Shown piece after piece: positions 36 to 24,459 of a stretch of DNA of 64,000 nt. Under the pieces are notes generated by a model, which saw only the letters and a program-made list of their open reading frames with translations, searched no databases and had not been told where the DNA came from. Source of the DNA: Candidatus Parcubacteria bacterium (GTDB lineage: Bacteria; Patescibacteriota; Minisyncoccia; Phycocordibacterales; JAKFXT01); the NCBI GenBank assembly GCA_021414235.1, contig JAIOOV010000004.1, positions 190,456 through 254,455 on the forward strand, read 5' to 3'. A program made the position numbers and the translations under genes. Within the stretch, counting starts at the first letter, position 1. Each line of letters opens with the position of its first letter.

Positions 36-2234
36 ATGCGTGCGCGCTTTTTCGTAAGGGTATTACTTTGCGCCTTTTTGTTGGCAATCTCCGTGGGTCC
101 GGGACGCGCGATTGCGGCGGCAGATCCCATCATGTGGCTCAAGTTCGATGATGGATCCGGTACTACGCCTCAGGATAGCGGAGCTAACAATATCGACGGC
201 TCTTTTACGGCGACCGAGCCTACTTGGACGAACAACGTGCCCAGCGTGTCTTTTGACAATCCTTACGCGCTCTCTTTTACGGGCTCGGGCGATGCCGTGA
301 ACGTGTCCTGGCCCGTGGGACGGAACTTCGCGGCGACAGATCCGAGAAGCTTCTCTTTTTGGTACAAGCCGACAGCTAATGGCGAAGGGTCTTATTCACG
401 CATCATCAGCTGGAGCAGCGATAAGCTGGAGATCGCCGGTACGGAGGCGGGACCCACCACCCACAAGATCACTTATTTCGATGGTAACTGGCACGCCACC
501 GATATCACGCTCAGCCTTGGTACTTGGTATCACGTTACCTTCACCTACGATGGCACCACTGCGAAGTTCTATATCGGGAATGAGTTGCAGGATGAGCACT
601 CTCTCGCGGGCCGTGACCTCAGCGGCACACTGCGTATCGGCAACCGCGTGCAGCAGCTTGATGAGGGTATCAATGGATATATAGATGATGTGCGCGTCTA
701 CGATTACGCGCTGAATTCTACGCAGGTCGGCAACCTCTCCTCCGGCTCGAGCAACCCCGATGCCGCTCCGGATGCCACGAGCCCCAGTGTGGAGATAACC
801 GTGCCCGCGAGCGCGGCCACCATCGGGGGGAGCGCGGTGACTCTCACTGCTAGCTCCTCGGACAATGTCCTGGTATCTGGCGTGAAGTTCTACTATGACA
901 GCACGAATCAGATAGGGAGCGAGATCACTGCCACCACCTCGGTGAATATCTATAATTCTACGTTCAATACCACTGCTCTCTCTGACGGCTCGCATACTCT
1001 CATCGCCGTGGCGCGGGACGCGGCTGGAAATCGCGCCACCTCCACCGCAGTGACGGTGACCGTGGATAATACGGGTCCCACCATTTCCGCGGTGGCAAGT
1101 TCCAGCATTACCAGCTCGGGAGGCACGCTGACCTGGACCACCAGTGAGGCGGCTTCCACAAAAGCGGTCTATTCCGCCGACTCGCTCTACGCCTCCTCCA
1201 CGACGGAGACGGATACCAGTACGCGGGTGACGAGCCATAGCAAGGCGATAAGTAGTCTGCTCTCCTGTACCCTCTACAACTACAAAGTCATCTCTGCTGA
1301 TACGGCGGGAAATTATGCCACCTCCACCGCGGGCACCTTTACTACGACAGGCTGTACGGGCGGCAGCGCGCCCTCTTCCTCCACTTCGACGGTGGTTACG
1401 GTAAGTTCGGCGGCCACCTCCACGGTCACGGATACCGGACGTACCATCACCGTCTCGACACCCGCCAACTTTACCTCCACCTCTTCTTCCGTGGTGATAC
1501 AGATAAAGGGTCTCTCTTCAAGCGCGGTACTCGATACCACCGGCAAGCCTTCTTCCAGCCTAAGCAGCGCGGCGAGCCTGGTGTTCAATGTGACCGCCCT
1601 CATCAACAACACCACGGAATTGGACTCCTTTGATACGGCAGTGACTGTCTCCTATACGTACACCGACGGTGACGTGAGCAGTCTCGATGAGAGCACGCTC
1701 AAGATGTACCACTACAAGAACAGCACGTGGTCGGAGCTTGATTCCTGCTCCGTAAATACCGGCACGAACACCATCACCTGTACCGCGCCGCACTTTTCCA
1801 TCTTCGCCATATTCGGAACATCACAATCCTCTTCGAGTAGTAGCTCCACCACGCATACTGGTGTTGTTATCGGCTGTACGGATCGTGCAGCTCTCAATTT
1901 TTCCCCTTACGCTTTCGGAGTGAATACCGCGCTTTGCCAGTACGCGCGCCAGGCGGCGGCTGTTTCCACGGCTGCTCCTCTTCCGCCAGCATTCACGCGC
2001 GACCTGCGGAGGGGGATGTCAGGAGAAGACGTAAAACGCTTGCAGCAGTGGCTCAACGCGAGGGGGCATGTCGTATCGAAGAGCGGCCCTGGAAGTAGGG
2101 GGAAGGAGACTGCGTATTTTGGATCCGCTACGGCAAAAGCCCTCGCGGCTTTCCAGAAGAAGAGTAAGATCAAACCGTCCTCTGGCTACTTCGGCCCAGT
2201 AACTCGCGGTATTGTGGCTGGTTCGATGCGATGA
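36..2234 (+). CDS. Secreted surface protein: N-terminal LamG/ConA-like lectin domain, Ig-like repeat region, C-terminal peptidoglycan-binding (PG_binding_1) module
   Basis: Signal peptide (MRARFFVRVLLCAFLLAISVGPGRA). LamG-like motifs (GTLRIGNR...IDDVRVYDYAL). Thr/Ser-rich Ig-like repeats. C-terminal LRRGMSGEDVKRLQQWLNARGHVV...GYFGPVTRGIV matches the PG_binding_1 pattern. A -10 TATAAT at 20-25 lies immediately before the ATG (leaderless-like). Confidence 0.6.
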   Translation: MRARFFVRVLLCAFLLAISVGPGRAIAAADPIMWLKFDDGSGTTPQDSGANNIDGSFTATEPTWTNNVPSVSFDNPYALSFTGSGDAVNVSWPVGRNFAATDPRSFSFWYKPTANGEGSYSRIISWSSDKLEIAGTEAGPTTHKITYFDGNWHATDITLSLGTWYHVTFTYDGTTAKFYIGNELQDEHSLAGRDLSGTLRIGNRVQQLDEGINGYIDDVRVYDYALNSTQVGNLSSGSSNPDAAPDATSPSVEITVPASAATIGGSAVTLTASSSDNVLVSGVKFYYDSTNQIGSEITATTSVNIYNSTFNTTALSDGSHTLIAVARDAAGNRATSTAVTVTVDNTGPTISAVASSSITSSGGTLTWTTSEAASTKAVYSADSLYASSTTETDTSTRVTSHSKAISSLLSCTLYNYKVISADTAGNYATSTAGTFTTTGCTGGSAPSSSTSTVVTVSSAATSTVTDTGRTITVSTPANFTSTSSSVVIQIKGLSSSAVLDTTGKPSSSLSSAASLVFNVTALINNTTELDSFDTAVTVSYTYTDGDVSSLDESTLKMYHYKNSTWSELDSCSVNTGTNTITCTAPHFSIFAIFGTSQSSSSSSSTTHTGVVIGCTDRAALNFSPYAFGVNTALCQYARQAAAVSTAAPLPPAFTRDLRRGMSGEDVKRLQQWLNARGHVVSKSGPGSRGKETAYFGSATAKALAAFQKKSKIKPSSGYFGPVTRGIVAGSMR

Positions 2235-17419: not shown

Positions 17420-19315
17420 GTGAATCACATTGTCCGAGACATCCTCGCCTCCGCAATCGTCCTCTCTTTTTTGGCACTCTCGATATCCGCGGAAGCCCTG
17501 ACGCTCTCCGCGGCGCCTGGTACACCCACTTCTACGCTCACCACCTACATCAATGGCGCGGATCGTGCCAATTTTCCTATTACCGTCCCGCTTGAGACTG
17601 CTACCACCGGAGCGGTCGAAGGGGATACGCTGGAGCTTTTCGTAAATGGCGCCCGCTTTCCGATTCCGGTCACGGGGGTGCTCTCTGCAAGCGATATCTC
17701 TGCTGATCAGCGCACCTTCACTTTGTCGCTCACGTTCGCCAATAACCTGAGCAACGGCGTTAAGAATTTCACTGCAGCCCTCTCCTCGAACGGTATTACC
17801 TACAGTTCTTCGAGCCCCGCGCTCACGCTTACGCTCGACACGAGCGCCCCCACGCTCTCGCCGGTATCCGTGGTGTCGAATAATACGGTCACTACGAAAG
17901 CCACCACGGGAAATGTAGTAACGCTCTCCTTTACGGCGAGCGAGGGTCTACGTACCCCCACGGTAACACTCGCTGGGCGTTCAGTGACTCCTGCGGGAGG
18001 TCCTCTTTCTTGGACGGCTTCCACCACCATGCTCTCGACAGACGGGGATGGGATCATTCCCTTTAGCATCTCCTATGCCGACCTCGCTGGTAACGTGGGT
18101 ACCACCATCTCTTCGGTACGTGGCGGGGGACAGAATGTGGTGTTTGATCGTACTGCGCCGGTCATCTCCTCGGCGACGAATATTGTGACGTCTGCTACGA
18201 CGGTGGATGGGACTAGTGTGAGCTTCGCTCCGACGGCGGTCGACGGTATCGAAGGCAGCCGTCCGGTCTCGTGCAACTTCGCTTCCGGGTATCTCTTCGC
18301 GATCGGCACGACCACAGTCTCTTGTACCTCAGCCGACTCTCTCGGTAACTCTGCTTCCGCCTCTTTCACGGTGGCGGTGCGTACGTTCATGCCGCTCTCT
18401 GCAAGCACAGCTCTGACTTCCGGAGCGCAGCAGGCAGTGACCGACGAGCATACTCTCTCTGCTTCCACCATCTCGGTGCCGAGCGATGCAGATACGCCCA
18501 CGCTTAATTTCAGTCCGATCCTTACTAGGAACTCCGGTGTCCCGAGCGTCTCTCTGGGCGGCGCGATTACTGTCTCTGCGCAGAGAGGTTCGGACGTGTT
18601 CTCCCTCCTTTTTCCTTCGAACCTCACCATCACCGGGCCCTCCTCCTGGAACGGGGTGTTCAAGCTACCGACTCTTAAGGCGAGCAATAGCGTGACCGTC
18701 ACGCCGTCTTCCGGCAATACGGCAAATAATGGATCGGTCATCGAAGTGGGTTCGGAGAGCACTCCTCTCACGCTCGATCGCGCGATCCGGCTGCTCATCC
18801 CACGCGCATGGAGCGAGTTCCTGGGGAAGAGTAGTGGCGGCGTCTTCGGGAAGATCAGTGCTATCTGTAACGCGGATGATCAGGACTCCGCGGATGCCCA
18901 GCTGTCTGCGGACGGCGACTGTCGTACCTCCGTCGGGATGGATATCGTGCTCTGGACCAAGCGCCCCGGCTCCTACGTGGTGTACAGCGAGACGCCCATC
19001 GCCTCCTCTCAGAGCCCCGCTGGAGGTGGTGGTGGAGGGGGAGGTGGCGGGGGAACCCTGATCGCACAGGTCACTGAAACTGGCTCTGTGAATCGCAATG
19101 TCTCACCCCAGACTGTTTCGGATCCTGCGCTGGTGCGTCCTGCGGATATCCAGAGGGACGGCGCTATCGACATCCTGGACTTCAATTCCTTGATGGTCGG
19201 CTGGGGCACTACCTCTCCTTCCGATCCCGCGGATACCAACGGAGATGGACAGGTAGATATTCTAGATTTCAATACCCTCATGGTATATTGGGGCAGCACG
19301 TATCAACTATTATGA
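17420..19315 (+). CDS. Secreted giant surface protein: Ig/HYR-like repeats, poly-Gly linker, C-terminal dockerin-like double Ca-binding repeat
   Basis: GTG start and signal peptide. Thr/Ser-rich beta-repeat region. SPAGGGGGGGGGGGTLIAQ linker. C-terminal ADIQRDGAIDILDFNSLMVGWG and ADTNGDGQVDILDFNTLMVYWG form a duplicated D-x-N/D-GDG-x-(V/I)D-x-x-D dockerin type-I-like signature. Confidence 0.6.
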   Translation: MNHIVRDILASAIVLSFLALSISAEALTLSAAPGTPTSTLTTYINGADRANFPITVPLETATTGAVEGDTLELFVNGARFPIPVTGVLSASDISADQRTFTLSLTFANNLSNGVKNFTAALSSNGITYSSSSPALTLTLDTSAPTLSPVSVVSNNTVTTKATTGNVVTLSFTASEGLRTPTVTLAGRSVTPAGGPLSWTASTTMLSTDGDGIIPFSISYADLAGNVGTTISSVRGGGQNVVFDRTAPVISSATNIVTSATTVDGTSVSFAPTAVDGIEGSRPVSCNFASGYLFAIGTTTVSCTSADSLGNSASASFTVAVRTFMPLSASTALTSGAQQAVTDEHTLSASTISVPSDADTPTLNFSPILTRNSGVPSVSLGGAITVSAQRGSDVFSLLFPSNLTITGPSSWNGVFKLPTLKASNSVTVTPSSGNTANNGSVIEVGSESTPLTLDRAIRLLIPRAWSEFLGKSSGGVFGKISAICNADDQDSADAQLSADGDCRTSVGMDIVLWTKRPGSYVVYSETPIASSQSPAGGGGGGGGGGGTLIAQVTETGSVNRNVSPQTVSDPALVRPADIQRDGAIDILDFNSLMVGWGTTSPSDPADTNGDGQVDILDFNTLMVYWGSTYQLL

Positions 19316-20574
19316 GCATGTATAAAGCGCTTTCGACTCTCGCGATCCTGCTCGGTATAGTTCTCCTTCCTTCCACTACGGAAGCAAGTTCCTTTGTTCT
19401 CGAGAACAAGACGATAACGGTGGAGGCTGGTAAGACATTCACTCTACCGGTCACGGTGGCACCAGGGGCGGGTGAGAAGCTCTACACCGCCAAGCTCGCA
19501 CTCGACTTTTCGCCAGAGATGCTCGAAGTCGTCTCCTTCACTTTTAAGCCATCTTGGCTCTCCGTCTCCCAGCCTGGCTATGACTCTGTCGACAATCCGA
19601 GAGGTGAGATGATAAAGACTGCAGGATTCCCCAAGGGGTTCTCTTCTTCTGTTTCCTTCGGCACAGTGACCTTCCGCGCCAAGAGCGTCGGGGAGGACGT
19701 CATCAGCGTTGGCCCTCGTTCTCTCATCCTCGATGCTACTAATAAGGATACGTTGACTTCCCGAGAGCAGGCGCGAGTCACTGTCAGGGCAGCATCCTCT
19801 CTCCCGCAGTCTGCTCCTGCGAAGCCTGCGGAAGACCCGAACCTCTTCGATATAAGTCATTCTCCTGAGATACAGACGGCAGGCGTGGGGCTCGTGTCCC
19901 GGGTCGCTCCAGGTGAGTTCCTCACGTTTTCAGTAAAGCTGCTCAATTTTGGTAACAAGAACAAGGTCGATGTGGGGCTCTCTTACAACGTCACAGACTC
20001 AGAAGGGAAGGTAATCTACCACGCGGAAGAGACGGTGGCGGTCGAGACTACCGCGAGCTTCGTGAAGACCATCCAGATCCCGTATGAGACGAAGCCTGGT
20101 CGCTACGTGGTGAGGAGCTTCATCACCTACAAGGATCAAGTCGCTCCTGCGCAGACCGAATTTCCCTTCACTGTGGAGGACAAGGTCCTCGGTCTCTTCC
20201 TGAGCGACTTCACTCTCTATGGAGGCACTACGGTTACTCTCAGTATTCTCTCGGTCCTGGGCTACACCCTGTTCCGCCGGTATAAGAAGGAGACTCGGTT
20301 CGCGCCGTTCGCATACGCCAATGTCCCTAGCGATGTTCGCATCTTCTATGAGATCCTCAGCGACACCATCATGGGCATGCGTCAGAGAGTAGGGGATGAT
20401 GCGCTCTTCGTCGCCTCTCAGATCGAAGGATTGAAGATAGATATCTCTACTGGCAGGGTGCTCTCCGTAGGGGAGAATCCTTCCAAAATCATCGCCTCTC
20501 TCGTATACGAATACGAGAAGCTTCTCGGCAAGAAGGTGTCCTTCTCGCTCCGTCCGGAGTCGATAGCTGCATAA
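19312..20574 (+). CDS. Type-I membrane protein with N-terminal cohesin-like domain, CARDB-like domain, single TM helix and ~100-aa cytoplasmic tail
   Basis: ATG overlaps the upstream stop (ATGA). Signal peptide MSMYKALSTLAILLGIVLLPSTTEA. KTITVEAGKTFTLPVTVAPGAGEKLYTAKLALDFSPEMLEVVSF…FGTVTFRAKSVGEDVISVGP matches the cohesin beta-sandwich pattern. Second domain (…LTFSVKLLNFGN…VDVGLSYNVTDSEGKVIYH…PGRYVVRSFITY) is CARDB-like. TM helix is GTTVTLSILSVLGYTLF. Confidence 0.55.
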   Translation: MSMYKALSTLAILLGIVLLPSTTEASSFVLENKTITVEAGKTFTLPVTVAPGAGEKLYTAKLALDFSPEMLEVVSFTFKPSWLSVSQPGYDSVDNPRGEMIKTAGFPKGFSSSVSFGTVTFRAKSVGEDVISVGPRSLILDATNKDTLTSREQARVTVRAASSLPQSAPAKPAEDPNLFDISHSPEIQTAGVGLVSRVAPGEFLTFSVKLLNFGNKNKVDVGLSYNVTDSEGKVIYHAEETVAVETTASFVKTIQIPYETKPGRYVVRSFITYKDQVAPAQTEFPFTVEDKVLGLFLSDFTLYGGTTVTLSILSVLGYTLFRRYKKETRFAPFAYANVPSDVRIFYEILSDTIMGMRQRVGDDALFVASQIEGLKIDISTGRVLSVGENPSKIIASLVYEYEKLLGKKVSFSLRPESIAA

Positions 20575-20585
20575 AGCGGAATTTT

Positions 20586-20969
20586 ATGAAAAAGAAAAAG
20601 ACCATCCTCATAGTGGAAGACGATGACAACATACGCGATCTGGTGGTAATCGCCCTTACGCCCAAAGGGCACACCTTGCTCCAGGCGAAGAACGGTGCGG
20701 AAGGAGTGGAGCTCGCCCTTGCGAATCATCCTGATCTCATCCTGCTTGATCTCATGATGCCGGTGATGGATGGTATGACAGCTTTCAAGAAGATCCGCGA
20801 AGACGCTTGGGGCAAGAACGTACCGGTCATCATCATGACCAACCTCAGCGCCACGGAAGACAAGCTGGTAGCGGACATGGTGGCCAACAAGCCCCTCCAT
20901 TACCTCATTAAGTCTGACTGGGAGATTCCGGACGTGATCAAGAAGATCGAAGCCGCCCTAGGTCTCTGA
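20586..20969 (+). CDS. Stand-alone response-regulator receiver domain (CheY-like)
   Basis: ILIVEDDDNIRDLV…LILLDLMMPVMDGMTAFKKIRED…VPVIIMTNLSA. The phospho-acceptor Asp is in LLDLMMP and the conserved Lys in the C-terminal HYLIKSD. No output domain. Confidence 0.75.
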   Translation: MKKKKTILIVEDDDNIRDLVVIALTPKGHTLLQAKNGAEGVELALANHPDLILLDLMMPVMDGMTAFKKIREDAWGKNVPVIIMTNLSATEDKLVADMVANKPLHYLIKSDWEIPDVIKKIEAALGL

Positions 20970-21034
20970 TACCTGGTTACCCACAGGAAGTTCTCTTTCG
21001 GAAGGGTATACTGGAGCCATGGCGGTGCGCTTAC

Positions 21035-23110
21035 GTGCCCGCACCCTTTTTCGTGAAAAGATTCATTTTCCGCAGTCTAACCACTTCTCTACTCGCTGCC
21101 TCTTTCGTACTCGCTTCGCTCCCTGCAGAGGCCCTGACGCTCTCCGAAGCTCCTGGTACGCCGACCTCTCCGCTCACGACGTATATCAACGGGGCAGACC
21201 GGGCAAGTTTCTCTGTCACCGTTCCTCTCTCTACCAGTACGACCGGCGCTGTGGCGGGAGACACGCTCGAACTCTACGTGAACGGAGTTTCCTTTCCTTC
21301 TCCTGTGACCGCGGTGCTCTCGAGTAATGATGTGGATGTCACAGGTTCTCATACCTTCACTCTTGCTCTGACTTTCGCCAACAACCTGAGTAACGGGGTG
21401 AAGAATTTCACCGCAGCTCTCTCTTCTGATGGGGTGAGTACGAGTACGGCGAGTCTCGTCCCCCTTACACTTACTCTAGATACGGCGGCGCCGACGCTCT
21501 CGCCAGTGTCTCTCTCTTCAGACGATGCGACCACCACCGTCGCGAATGTTGGAAATGTGGTCACGCTTTCCTTTACTTCGAACGAAAGTATCGCTGCACC
21601 CACCGTGACGCTTGCGGGGCGTTCGGCGACCGCTATCGGAGGACCTACCTCCTGGTCCGCTTCGACCACGATGATTTCTGCGGATACCGACGGAAGCATT
21701 CCGTTCAGTATCGCTTTTGCCGACCTCGCGGGTAACGTGGGTACCACCGTCTCTACTGTCCGTGGTGGGGGACAGAACGTTACCTTTGACCATACGCCGC
21801 CGGTGCTGGTGATGTCTGACATAGTCACTGCTGCCTCCTCTTCCGCTGGAACTATCGTTCAGTTCCCAGCGCTTGCGGCCGATGCAATCGGGGGGAATAA
21901 GGCGATCGTGTGCGACCGTCTCTCGGGTTCCGTCTTTGCGATCGGTACGACGACGGTGAGCTGTACGGCGAGCGATGCTCTCAATAACTCGACGTCCACC
22001 TCCTTTACTGTTTTGGTCCGTAGCTTCACCTCTCTTTCTACTAATACCTCTCTGTATGCGGGAGCGCAGCAGGTGGTAGTGAACGCCACGACCTCGGCTA
22101 CCTCTACTGTCTCTATACCTGTTGATGCAACGAGCCCTACGTTGAATCTTGCAGCGCTGCTCTCTACTACGAGTGATAGCGCGAGCGTGAGCCTAGGTGG
22201 CGCGCTTGCTGTGGAGGCGGTGAGGGGCGGCAATACGATCGCGGTCGCATTTCCTGCGGGGCTCACGGTCACCGGCCCTTCTTCCTGGAACGGTGTGCTC
22301 AATCTGCCCACGGTGAAGGCGAGCGATAGTGTCACGGTTACACCTACCGCTAATTACCGGGCGAGCGTGGGGCAGGTCATAGAGATAGGCGCTGGTGACG
22401 TTGCGCTGACGCTCGATCGTGCCGTACGCATCCTCATTCCTGGTGCTTGGCAGGCGTTCCTTGGCTGGAGCCGTAACGGAACCTTCGGCGCGATCACTAC
22501 GGTCTGTAACGCTGACAATCAAGGTGTTGTAGATGCACAACTTTCTGCCGGAGCAGATTGTCGCGTCAACATCGGCCAGGATACGGCTATATGGACTAAG
22601 CACTTCAGTTCCTTCTTCCCTTATGGAGAGACGCCCATCTCCTCTGTGTCTTCCGGAGGAAATGGCGGTGGAGGAGGGGGAGGTGGCGGTGGCTTCATAT
22701 CCGCCCAGACATCAGTGTCTGTTCAAACCGCACCTGCAACCCCTTCTCTTTCTGTAGAGCCTGTGGGTGCTGTTCTCGGTGCCTCGACCTATCGCTTCTC
22801 TACGACGCTCAAGAAAGGTTCGCGCGGTACGGCAGTGAAGGAGCTGCAGAAGATCCTCAAGGAAGAAGGCCTTTTCGATGAAGAGATCACTGGTCTCTTT
22901 GGAAACGTGACTCTACAGGCGGTTAAAGCGTATCAGAAGAAGAACAAGCTTGAGGCGGTAGGCGAAGTGGGGCCGGCTACGCGCAAGCTTCTCAATGCGC
23001 GCGCCACTTCCTCCCCAGCGCAATCGACAGATGCCCTTCGTGCGCAGATAGATCAGCTTCTCCTTTTGGTAAAGGCGCTCCAGGCGCAGATGAAGACGGC
23101 GGGTAATTAA
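21035..23110 (+). CDS. Paralogous giant surface protein: Ig/HYR-like repeats, poly-Gly linker, C-terminal peptidoglycan-binding (PG_binding_1) module
   Basis: Collinear with 17420-19315 at about 60-75% identity over roughly the first 540 aa (EALTLSEAPGTPTSPLTTYINGADRA…). Linker SSGGNGGGGGGGGGGFISAQ. The C-terminus LKKGSRGTAVKELQKILKEEGLFDEEITGLFGNVTLQAVKAYQKK is PG_binding_1-like instead of dockerin. Confidence 0.6.
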   Translation: MPAPFFVKRFIFRSLTTSLLAASFVLASLPAEALTLSEAPGTPTSPLTTYINGADRASFSVTVPLSTSTTGAVAGDTLELYVNGVSFPSPVTAVLSSNDVDVTGSHTFTLALTFANNLSNGVKNFTAALSSDGVSTSTASLVPLTLTLDTAAPTLSPVSLSSDDATTTVANVGNVVTLSFTSNESIAAPTVTLAGRSATAIGGPTSWSASTTMISADTDGSIPFSIAFADLAGNVGTTVSTVRGGGQNVTFDHTPPVLVMSDIVTAASSSAGTIVQFPALAADAIGGNKAIVCDRLSGSVFAIGTTTVSCTASDALNNSTSTSFTVLVRSFTSLSTNTSLYAGAQQVVVNATTSATSTVSIPVDATSPTLNLAALLSTTSDSASVSLGGALAVEAVRGGNTIAVAFPAGLTVTGPSSWNGVLNLPTVKASDSVTVTPTANYRASVGQVIEIGAGDVALTLDRAVRILIPGAWQAFLGWSRNGTFGAITTVCNADNQGVVDAQLSAGADCRVNIGQDTAIWTKHFSSFFPYGETPISSVSSGGNGGGGGGGGGGFISAQTSVSVQTAPATPSLSVEPVGAVLGASTYRFSTTLKKGSRGTAVKELQKILKEEGLFDEEITGLFGNVTLQAVKAYQKKNKLEAVGEVGPATRKLLNARATSSPAQSTDALRAQIDQLLLLVKALQAQMKTAGN

Positions 23111-23116
23111 TCTCTC

Positions 23117-24049
23117 ATGCACCGAACCCTCAGGACCTTGGCACGTTTCTTTATTCCTTCGAAAGGGAATCGCTATAAGCCGAGGTTCTTTACTGCGCGC
23201 CCGGTGGGTCTGATACTCGCCGTCCTGGTGCTCCTGGAGCTCGGAGTGCTCGCACAAGGAATGCTCCTTACGAGGAGCGATCGATATCTCACCAGCGTGC
23301 TCCCGGGGGCGCTCGCTGCTTTCTCGAATGAGGCCCGCAGCGAAGCCGCGCTTCCTGCGCTGCGCCCTGACGCACATCTTGCGAAGGCCGCCTTGCTCAA
23401 GGCGGAGGACATGGCCTCTCGCGGGTATTTCTCCCACCAGACCCCAGAGGGGCAGGAGCCCTGGATATTCTTGGAGAAAGCTGGGTATGACTATTCCTAC
23501 GCTGGTGAGAACTTAGCGGTGAACTTTTCTGATTCCCAGGACGTCACTGATGCGTGGCTCCTCTCTCCGACGCATCGCGCCAATCTTTTGAACGCGGATT
23601 TCTCCGAAGTCGGCTTCGGCGTCGCCACCGGCACCTACCAGGGCAGGGAAGCAGTCTTTGTGGTGCAGTTCCTCGCGGCTCCTGCTGGCGCTGATGTTCC
23701 TGTGCAGCCGGCGATGGAAGTGCTTCCTGCGGAGGTCTCCGTAGGAGAGAGCGGAGTGTCGGAGGTGAAGGCCTACGTCACCAGCCAGTCTTCTCTCTCG
23801 GGTCGCATCCTTTCTTCTCCTCGATCCCTTGCAAGTACGGTGAACCTCATCTTGCTCGCGTTCATCGCCTGTCTCTTTGCTCTCGCTATGGTACTCAAGC
23901 TCCGTGCACAGCAGAGGGAGGCCTGGAGCAACGGCCTTCTAGCCATAAGCGCTCTCGCTGGTCTCATCCTCCTCCAGGGAGGCCTCTTCCCTGGAGAGGT
24001 ATTCCTGCCGGAGAGTGCAGCGAGCGTTTCGCTCAGCGTCCCTCGGTAA
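23117..24049 (+). CDS. CAP (SCP/TAPS) domain protein with N- and C-terminal TM anchors
   Basis: GYFSHQTPEGQEPWIFLEKAGYDYSYAGENLAVNF…DAWLLSPTHRANLLNADFSEVGFGVA matches the CAP/SCP core. Hydrophobic segments flank the domain. Confidence 0.65.
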   Translation: MHRTLRTLARFFIPSKGNRYKPRFFTARPVGLILAVLVLLELGVLAQGMLLTRSDRYLTSVLPGALAAFSNEARSEAALPALRPDAHLAKAALLKAEDMASRGYFSHQTPEGQEPWIFLEKAGYDYSYAGENLAVNFSDSQDVTDAWLLSPTHRANLLNADFSEVGFGVATGTYQGREAVFVVQFLAAPAGADVPVQPAMEVLPAEVSVGESGVSEVKAYVTSQSSLSGRILSSPRSLASTVNLILLAFIACLFALAMVLKLRAQQREAWSNGLLAISALAGLILLQGGLFPGEVFLPESAASVSLSVPR

Positions 24050-24050
24050 A

Positions 24051-24086
24051 CGAAAACTCCCTCGCCTAGGCGAGGGAGTTTTCGTT
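24051..24086. terminator. Bidirectional terminator between convergent genes
   Basis: cgaaaactccctcgcc-tagg-cgagggagttttcg is a 16-bp perfect inverted repeat. Confidence 0.55.
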
Positions 24087-24093
24087 GCGAGAG

Positions 24094-24459
24094 TTAACGG
24101 ATTTTCTTGGTGCTCGTGGCGATGCGGGTCTCTTTGATTTTCTGCTGCACTGCTTTACGTTCGGTCTGGAGCTTGTCGATGGCTGCTTTTTTGGCGACAC
24201 GCTCCGCGGCGATGTCTTTCTTGATGGCGTCGGTTTTTGCTTTGGCCTCCTTGCGGATAGCTGTGATTTTTGCAGCGTACTCCTCGCGTAAGATCTTGAT
24301 CTTGTCCTGAAGCTCTTTCTGGAGGACTTGGATCTGCCGTTCTGCGGCGACGGTTGGGCTTGAAGAAGCGGTCTCTGTCTGGGCATGAGCAACACCAGCG
24401 ATCATGAAGGTGACAAAGAGGACTCCTGCTAAGTATTTAGTCATAGATTGAAATAACAA
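24094..24459 (-). CDS. Secreted coiled-coil protein (hypothetical)
   Basis: Signal peptide MTKYLAGVLFVTFMIAGVAHAQ followed by a K/E/A-rich heptad-like sequence. Confidence 0.4.
   Translation of the reverse strand: MLFQSMTKYLAGVLFVTFMIAGVAHAQTETASSSPTVAAERQIQVLQKELQDKIKILREEYAAKITAIRKEAKAKTDAIKKDIAAERVAKKAAIDKLQTERKAVQQKIKETRIATSTKKIR

Follow-up and report, generated by a model that had tools for sequence, protein, structure and literature searches.

In the 64,000-nucleotide (nt) stretch of a Candidatus Parcubacteria genome analysed here (the window; contig JAIOOV010000004.1, positions 190,456 to 254,455), two paralogous genes for secreted surface proteins, A and B, stand on either side of a gene for a transmembrane (TM) cohesin protein, cohesin-TM, and a gene for a receiver-only response regulator (RR). 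These genes and their parts are listed in Table 1. Both A and B are identical to Candidatus Parcubacteria proteins held at NCBI, where A is named 'HYR domain-containing protein' and B 'peptidoglycan-binding protein'. The frame of B is open from a GTG codon at 21035, which gives a reading of 691 aa; the NCBI record starts at 21053 (685 aa), and we prefer this GTG as the more likely start.

Table 1. Features of the locus in window coordinates, followed by features of homologous loci (L002 to L008) in the coordinates of each locus
Feature	Position	Strand	Description
Gene A	17420..19315	+	631 aa, secreted surface protein (open reading frame (ORF) list; HYR Pfam match; AlphaFold2 (AF2) model); signal peptide aa 1-26, immunoglobulin-like (Ig-like) domains, HYR aa 243-320, domain 4 aa 321-533, poly-Gly, dockerin tail
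Domain 4 of A	18380..19021	+	aa 321-534, ~200 aa; two conserved Cys, WTK(H/R) motif
Poly-Gly linker of A	19022..19054	+	11 uninterrupted Gly, aa 535-545, (GGN)11; homology with B stops here
Dockerin of A	19142..19312	+	aa 575-631, two Ca-loop-plus-helix repeats
Dockerin repeat 1, loop	19145-19180	+	repeat DIQRDGAIDILD-FNSLMVGWG
Dockerin repeat 2, loop	19232-19267	+	repeat DTNGDGQVDILD-FNTLMVYWG
Cohesin-TM gene	19312..20574	+	420 aa; ATG overlaps A stop TGA 19313-19315 (ATGA); signal peptide at the N-terminus
Cohesin domain	19387-19791	+	aa 26-160, followed by a disordered linker
Membrane module of cohesin-TM	19909-20571	+	C-terminal 56%: Ig-like domain, TM helix, ~100-aa cytoplasmic domain
Ig-like domain of cohesin-TM	19909-20181	+	aa 200-290
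TM helix of cohesin-TM	20200-20292	+	aa 297-327
Cytoplasmic domain of cohesin-TM		+	aa 328-420
Receiver-only RR	20586..20969	+	127 aa, 11 nt past cohesin-TM; Response_reg 68.3 bits
-10-like hexamer	21007-21012		TATACT, ahead of B
Gene B	21053..23110	+	685 aa; body as in A, poly-Gly, PG_binding_1, C-terminal amphipathic helix
Domain 4 of B	22022-22663	+	counterpart of A domain 4
Gly linker of B	22655..22693	+	GGN then 10 Gly
PG_binding_1 of B	22823..22993	+	aa 597-653 (691-aa numbering); PF01471 49.7 bits, cutoff 23
CAP/YkwD membrane protein	23117..24049	+	6 nt past B; CAP 73.6 bits; YkwD family 97 bits, below cutoff
Palindrome	24049..24086	.	perfect, 19 bp, loopless; between the convergent CAP-domain gene and the gene at 24094-24459
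Unrelated surface protein	36..2234	+	Laminin_G_3, Big_7, PG_binding_1 (37.9 bits) behind a poly-Ser linker
Long ORF opposite A	18073-18798	-	antisense
Long ORF opposite B	21349-21828	-	antisense
Usual dockerin cargo genes	L002 5315-5998, L004 5216-5995, L005 5294-5998, L006 5267-6004, L008 3633-4313		
Giant surface protein genes	L002 3162-5279, L005 3-4784, L006 2-4720, L008 1-3627		usually ahead of the dockerin gene
GIY-YIG endonuclease gene	L007 4738-5004		88 aa

A shared body, a glycine linker and two tails

The preliminary description of this stretch had stated that A and B are collinear and similar over ~540 aa. Indeed, BLASTP aligns residues 2-532 of A collinearly with residues 9-540 of B (691-aa numbering), with 318 of 533 positions identical (60%), 74% positives, three gaps and E = 0. 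The DNA identity of ~75% given there describes the stretch from which it was quoted (17496-17650 versus 21127-21280, about 72-75%), whereas the overall value is 65% across 1,593 bp; likewise, the label 'giant' does not suit proteins of 631 and 685 aa. The similarity is not a compositional artefact: it is collinear, contains long exact blocks and includes an HYR domain (PF02494) in both copies, which scores 34.4 bits in A and 27.6 bits in B against a cutoff of 21.7. By inspection, both proteins begin with a Sec-type signal peptide, that of A being MNHIVRDILASAIVLSFLALSISAEA. The AF2 model of A is confident at aa 141-322 only, as two beta-sandwich domains, and HYR is modelled as a beta-sandwich at aa 240-322 with a predicted local distance difference test score (pLDDT) of about 87-96. 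Judging from domain content, the Ig-like and HYR domains of the shared body suggest adhesion, towards a host or a substrate.

The homology breaks off at the Gly linker. Runs of six or more Gly are found nowhere beyond the A and B linkers in six frames of the window, and the two tracts lie in register, with 26 of 29 nt matching. The latter identity was rejected as a sign of recent exchange, because GGN codons alone yield about 75% identity. An uninterrupted run of 11-12 Gly had been reported for both linkers; the run is unbroken in A and broken once in B. The tails assigned at that time, dockerin-like on A and PG_binding_1 on B, both find support in Pfam matches located after the linker.

The PG_binding_1 match of B spans the full model (positions 1-57). 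The whole tail, including the terminal helix, is 41-53% identical to the tails of P0242, P0235, P0302, P0244, P0238 and P0247, proteins whose bodies differ from that of B. These relatives, and thereby the origin of the tail, became visible through the tails of the domain-4 family described below and not through a search of an index of 5.8 billion proteins, which returned two weak, short PG_binding_1 matches only. The gene at 36-2234 had been likened to B at this end; it does share PG_binding_1, but the domain sits behind a poly-Ser and not a poly-Gly linker. Because its PG_binding_1 is just 33% identical to that of B, this gene was not a recent donor of the B tail. A possible homology of domain 4 with the part of the same gene ahead of its linker was likewise rejected (BLASTP E = 0.31).

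For domain 4, the last part of the shared body before the linker, neither Pfam (E <= 10) nor NCBIfam (E <= 0.01) gave a match. A search with its profile retrieves 1,591 representative clusters at E <= 1e-3, of which 206 still match at E <= 1e-30, and the named members are proteins from metagenome-assembled genomes (MAGs) of Patescibacteria. The domain usually lies near the C-terminus of large proteins, and the family consensus closes with ...WTKHFTxFVTYTQT...GGGG; of 68 inspected members, 25 have a run of at least 5 Gly in the 80 residues behind the domain. A known envelope anchor was found downstream of domain 4 in 30 of 70 members scanned with Pfam (PG_binding_1 in 12, SLH in 8, Dockerin_1 in 7 and CW_binding_2 in 3), the bodies being very different. 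The poly-Gly linker is thus a standard junction of pre-anchor domain and anchor across a large family, and since anchors interchange family-wide after domain 4 and the linker, A and B represent a within-genome instance of this exchange. Domain 4 itself, which almost always stands directly ahead of a linker and an anchor of the envelope, is a candidate for a new domain family definition, and defining this family of about 1,600 clusters would aid the annotation of many hypothetical surface proteins.

These results support the earlier proposal that the anchoring end was shuffled after gene duplication: the shared body stops at the linker and the anchors beyond it interchange across the family. 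Anchor swapping on a duplicated body is therefore supported, and the A-B pair taken alone is ordinary modular evolution, a modest example of a general theme. The body was probably duplicated and joined to a different tail at or beside the poly-Gly linker, whose (GGN)n tract would be a plausible recombination junction, and which could serve as a flexible tether in both proteins. As had been observed before, no insertion sequence or flanking repeat surrounds the duplication; the repeat analysis detected paralogue-internal matches at a constant offset of ~3,640 bp and (GGN)n tracts, and nothing else.

It should be noted that long ORFs also run antisense to A and B (Table 1). They are a gene-calling artefact of coding sequence rich in Thr, Ser, Ala and Gly. 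The same applies to a minus-strand gene call at 5962-6834 of L001 in the public record, where the plus strand codes for the B orthologue.

The dockerin of A and the cohesin gene next to it

The Dockerin_1 signature (PF00404) (type I) comprises two tandem segments of ~22 residues, in each of which a helix comes after an EF-hand-like Ca2+ loop (D-x-[NDQ]-x-D-G-x-[IV]-[DN]-x-x-D). The two repeats in the tail of A agree at 13 of 22 positions (manual count), and theirs are the only Ca-loops of dockerin type in the whole window. The isolated 63-aa tail scores 27.8 bits with Dockerin_1 (cutoff 22.9), six of eight homologous tails match the same family, and the two repeats in a profile of eight dockerin tails can both be aligned to the solved dockerin 2y3n_B (E = 0.002). 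The tail of A is 54-59% identical to those of four distant loci (L002, L006, L007 and L008) and, in the comparison across the census introduced below, 49-56% identical to other dockerin tails.

A dockerin anchors nothing alone. With a dockerin on A, the likely socket is encoded by the overlapping next gene, cohesin-TM, whose membrane-anchored cohesin would account for the attachment of A; this gene, which explains the tail, was missed in the preliminary description. The cohesin family (PF00963) matches at 27.6 bits against a cutoff of 24.1, at aa 42-140 of a 428-aa reading. A profile of cohesin-TM found nothing among PDB sequences at E <= 1, and a comparison of folds was therefore needed. The AlphaFold model (mean pLDDT 80.7, built on 35 homologues) has the beta-sandwich (jelly-roll) fold of cohesins. 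In a Foldseek search of this model, the best single-domain matches were the solved cohesins 2jh2 and 2vo8 (TM 0.79-0.82 as template-modelling score, root-mean-square deviation 2.4-2.9 A), the top match overall was 2w1n, a cohesin-FN3 double module, and further matches included the CaCohA2, OlpC, OlpA, ScaB and ScaC cohesins taken from dockerin complexes. The signal peptide and the TM helix followed by RRYKK place the cohesin outside the cell, with an N-out topology by the positive-inside rule (from the model and inspection). The ATGA overlap, present in the window as well as in L001 and L065, indicates that A and cohesin-TM are probably co-transcribed and translationally coupled. Full-length relatives of cohesin-TM exist in other Parcubacteria. 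Catalytic domains and carbohydrate-binding modules are absent from A as well as from the small dockerin proteins at other loci and, with a single cohesin and no enzymes, the system is not a cellulosome.

The membrane module that forms the C-terminal part of cohesin-TM also occurs as a stand-alone protein of ~260 aa in hundreds of Patescibacteria; its identity across Patescibacteria is 50-62% (loci L009-L064), and it has no family name. A scan of species-representative genomes yielded 56 membrane-module loci over most named Patescibacteria lineages, and the 51 loci with sufficient upstream sequence form the base of our census, in which cohesins were sought with a hidden Markov model (HMM) built from 24 full-length homologues. 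A cohesin is present in 13 of 51 loci, fused to the membrane module in three. A dockerin-tailed ORF lies directly upstream in 12 of the 13 cohesin loci and in 0 of the 38 cohesin-less ones (Fisher p = 8e-11), and in all 12 ORFs 0-5 residues separate the dockerin from the stop codon. Of 50 evaluable loci, 42 have the receiver-only RR directly behind the membrane module. The core of membrane module and RR is nearly universal among loci retrieved with the module, while the dockerin-cohesin pair occurs in roughly a quarter of the sampled Patescibacteria loci. Apparent cohesins upstream of L015, L027, L028, L033, L038, L044, L049 and L059, and others inside the bodies of small dockerin proteins, were discarded as spurious, being due to unrelated N-termini that had contaminated an HMM.

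Several observations weigh against reading the tail of A as a dockerin. The whole protein scores 22.0 bits with Dockerin_1, below the cutoff of 22.9 (the NCBIfam model dockerin_GC gives 20.3 against a cutoff of 29); calmodulin-type EF-hands match the tail profile about as well as dockerins do, calmodulin and CaBP1 among them; and in the AF2 model, where three sequences cover domain 4 and the dockerin, both have pLDDT < 50, so that neither fold is resolved there. In addition, beta-sandwiches are common, and RbmA and transglutaminase domains also appear in the Foldseek list. The tail could accordingly be a generic EF-hand-like Ca-binding element that adjoins a cohesin gene by coincidence. The census makes this highly improbable, given the distribution of dockerins (12 of 13 against 0 of 38 loci) and their constant place at the extreme C-terminus of the gene directly upstream, as do the ATGA overlap in three assemblies, the cohesin score above the Pfam cutoff and the top single-domain structural matches, all of them cohesins whose complexes with dockerins have been solved.

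A dockerin gene directly upstream of the cohesin was also seen on inspection by hand in L002, L004, L005, L006, L007 and L008. In the first four of these loci it encodes a secreted protein of 227-259 aa with 'AWS..G(W/Y)I.F'-type repeats and a body unrelated to A, which finishes in ...LMVYWG.TYQL* in each case; a poly-Gly linker is present in L002, L004 and L006 and absent in L005. In L007 and L008, the cohesin is a separate protein of ~225 aa with its own TM anchor and the gene order is dockerin, cohesin, ~260-aa membrane module; cohesin-TM of the window is a fusion of two genes that are separate in L008.

The usual dockerin cargo, whose body of ~130 aa contains a CxxxC motif and repeats the pattern 'AWS.N.G(W/Y)I.F' three times, matches no family (Table 1). 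Very small Gly-rich bodies are encoded by the dockerin genes of L030, L031, L043 and L055-L057, and a third kind of body by that of L007 (292 aa). In L035 (Nealsonbacteria), two dockerin-tailed genes (213 and 667 aa), with dockerin matches 3,433 and 1,419 nt upstream of the membrane module, precede a single cohesin, which suggests that cargos compete for, or exchange on, one socket. The GIY-YIG gene of L007, inserted between the cohesin and membrane-module genes, probably encodes a homing endonuclease that is mobile. A giant surface protein with a Pro/Thr-rich tail, which in L008 carries a Peptidase_S74 intramolecular-chaperone domain, usually stands ahead of the dockerin gene, often with a small TM protein between the two; both of these proteins lack homologues in the window, in which the gene ahead of A encodes MgsA. 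Finally, the Patescibacteria-type membrane module with neighbours typical of Patescibacteria was found in MAGs labelled 'Gammaproteobacteria' (L010, L041, L045, L053, L057 and L062) or as DPANN archaea (L058, 'Undinarchaeales'; L064, 'Nanoarchaeia'). These taxonomic labels are probably wrong or the bins contaminated; true transfer to other ultra-small cells is less likely.

History and surroundings of the paralogous pair

L001 keeps the order MgsA, A, cohesin-TM, RR, B, with a cohesin protein 79% identical to that of the window. L065/L066 keep the same series from A to B, with 72% cohesin identity and a linker of 17 Gly. MgsA and RR of L001 are each 87% identical to those of the window, as against 65% for A. 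The copies of A and of B show a non-synonymous divergence (dN) of about 0.25 and a dN/dS of about 0.1-0.2; synonymous divergence (dS) is saturated (> 1), and only relative dN values were used for that reason. The neighbouring MgsA and RR genes have a dN of 0.09. A and B are therefore fast-evolving yet constrained.

Since the source is a MAG, the paralogues might be strain variants that were collapsed or mis-joined during assembly or binning. However, with a DNA identity of 65% the copies differ by far more than strains do, independent assemblies of other samples (L001 and L065/L066) show the order A, cohesin, RR, B again, and both ORFs are intact and under constraint; we regard the chance of such an artefact as practically negligible.

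The locus L002, with about 61% cohesin identity to the window, carries a small cargo, and the HYR/domain-4 body is found in none of the 12 dockerin genes of the census. A large body at the dockerin position is therefore derived and specific to this small clade. As the position upstream of the cohesin is conserved for dockerin genes, the novelty of this lineage is a change of cargo on a fixed dockerin tail as much as a change of tail.

One point against the history proposed for the pair lies in the phylogeny of the bodies. The body tree is nearly star-like, with identities of 60-64% among A copies, 72% among B copies and 55-61% between A and B, and sites grouping the copies by type and by genome are equally frequent (eight each). 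The genome-grouping sites cluster in Ig-like domain 2 (window 17865-18097, A aa 149-226) and the type-grouping sites in HYR (window 18230-18346, A aa 271-309); gene conversion between the paralogues is possibly behind this clustering. Moreover, the B orthologues of L001 and L065 are cut off at contig ends before their C-terminus, and the comparison of B with them covers the sequence ahead of that point.

The rest of the window is ordinary chromosome, with genes for MgsA, MurJ, LepA, GyrA, a class I tRNA synthetase and others. The CAP/YkwD gene is probably co-transcribed with B, and the palindrome that follows it likely acts as a bidirectional terminator closing the plus-strand unit.

Proposed attachment, possible signalling and known systems

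Taken together, A and B are paralogues that are probably Sec-secreted and present one body of ~510 aa at two attachment points of the envelope, a cohesin and the peptidoglycan. A would be docked through a Ca2+-dependent dockerin onto a single cohesin on the outer face of the cytoplasmic membrane, and co-expression of A with cohesin-TM would ensure that plug and socket are made together. B would be held non-covalently on peptidoglycan through PG_binding_1 and the terminal helix; as MurJ is encoded in the window, the cell probably makes peptidoglycan.

One body at two envelope depths could also form a bridge from membrane to wall, in which the membrane-docked A and the peptidoglycan-bound B pair through their homologous bodies or build a layered lattice. 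In three assemblies the pair has stayed together on either side of the cohesin and RR genes, and the amphipathic helix at the C-terminus of B could oligomerise. However, 60% identity with a fast dN fits diversification (of ligands, or antigenic variation) better than a mutual interface, which makes a bridge decidedly unlikely.

A rival reading takes cohesin-TM for a signalling device and not a passive anchor. Its cytoplasmic domain, a small alpha/beta fold in the AlphaFold model, bears the motif FYEILSDTIM.MRQRVGD. The cohesin protein might be a transmembrane sensor that passes occupancy of, or mechanical load on, the cohesin-dockerin contact through the cytoplasmic domain to the adjacent RR and, in other genomes, to PAS or CHASE3 histidine kinases, which are often encoded near the membrane module; histidine kinases adjoin it in L002, L004, L005, L007 and L008. 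In favour of this proposal, the RR directly follows the membrane module not only in most census loci but in every locus inspected by hand; the module, above all its cytoplasmic domain, is conserved far more than a mere anchor needs; and the cohesin protein is better conserved towards L001 (79%) than A is (65%). On the other hand, gene adjacency does not equal interaction, no signalling fold or family can be recognised in the cytoplasmic domain, and in 38 of 51 loci the module and the RR occur where cohesin and dockerin are both absent, so that the RR goes with the membrane module rather than with the docking pair. The window itself lacks a kinase paired with the RR: no homologue of the L008 kinase was detected there at E <= 1e-2, and kinases adjoin the module in other genomes only. 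We regard signalling, as a rival to passive anchoring, as unlikely.

Rather unlikely, in our estimate, is the broader proposal that the whole cassette is an undescribed surface-sensing unit, in which a replaceable dockerin-tagged protein is plugged into a membrane receptor whose conserved cytoplasmic domain reports occupancy or mechanical load to the RR. If this were true, the large Ig/HYR adhesin of the window would take the place that a small repeat protein has as cargo in most lineages, and the peptidoglycan-bound B would be a non-signalling copy of the same adhesin. Whatever its role, the cassette of dockerin, cohesin, membrane module and RR is a more novel lead than the paralogue pair.

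A survey of non-cellulosomal cohesin-dockerin modules was reportedly given by Peer et al. in 2009 in FEMS Microbiol Lett. We found no description of a cohesin-dockerin cassette from Patescibacteria or Parcubacteria in the searchable literature, the sole related mention being an essential dockerin-domain protein in a Saccharibacterium (PMC10633639). The conserved two-gene pair of dockerin protein and membrane cohesin would thus be new for Patescibacteria (the candidate phyla radiation, CPR), a group of ultra-small cells, most of them uncultured and probably living attached to other cells, for which the building and use of the surface is a central question. The locus provides a clean natural example of one adhesin-like body shown via two anchors, and the plug-and-socket pair could mark, in genomes, the surface proteins displayed by a given CPR cell.

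Among known systems, RsgI-type anti-sigma sensors of Clostridium thermocellum span the membrane once, with a module for binding outside the cell and a domain in the cytoplasm that connects to a regulator. They offer an analogy for the signalling proposal only: cohesin-TM has no sequence or domain relationship to them, and the regulator is a sigma factor there and a receiver-only RR here. Closer to the attachment model are OlpA and OlpC of the same species (complexes with type I dockerins, 3ul4 and 4dh2), whose cohesins are among our structural matches. There too, one cell-bound cohesin tethers one secreted protein bearing a dockerin with two C-terminal Ca-loop-plus-helix repeats. However, the OlpA and OlpC cohesins are fixed to the wall by SLH repeats and their cargo is an enzyme belonging to a system for cellulose degradation, whereas in the small-genome Parcubacterium a TM helix and a conserved cytoplasmic domain fix the cohesin, the cargo is an Ig-like/HYR protein without a catalytic domain, and the partners are encoded by adjacent, overlapping genes. 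The glycoside-hydrolase complexes of Clostridium perfringens (2jh2, 2vo8 and 2w1n) likewise use the cohesin-dockerin plug outside cellulosomes, and 2w1n resembles cohesin-TM in the cohesin followed by a second beta-sandwich. These complexes link secreted enzymes, whereas the pair in the window links a surface protein to a membrane protein, both encoded in a conserved two-gene unit beside an RR gene. Finally, the modular surface proteins of Gram-positive bacteria, which carry SLH, CWB2 (as in C. difficile Cwp), LysM or PG_binding_1 domains, show the same arrangement of a body, a flexible linker and an exchangeable non-covalent anchor. The window differs from this set in its junction, an unnamed domain of ~200 aa followed by poly-Gly, and in having two anchor types on one recently duplicated body, at most 3.6 kb apart.

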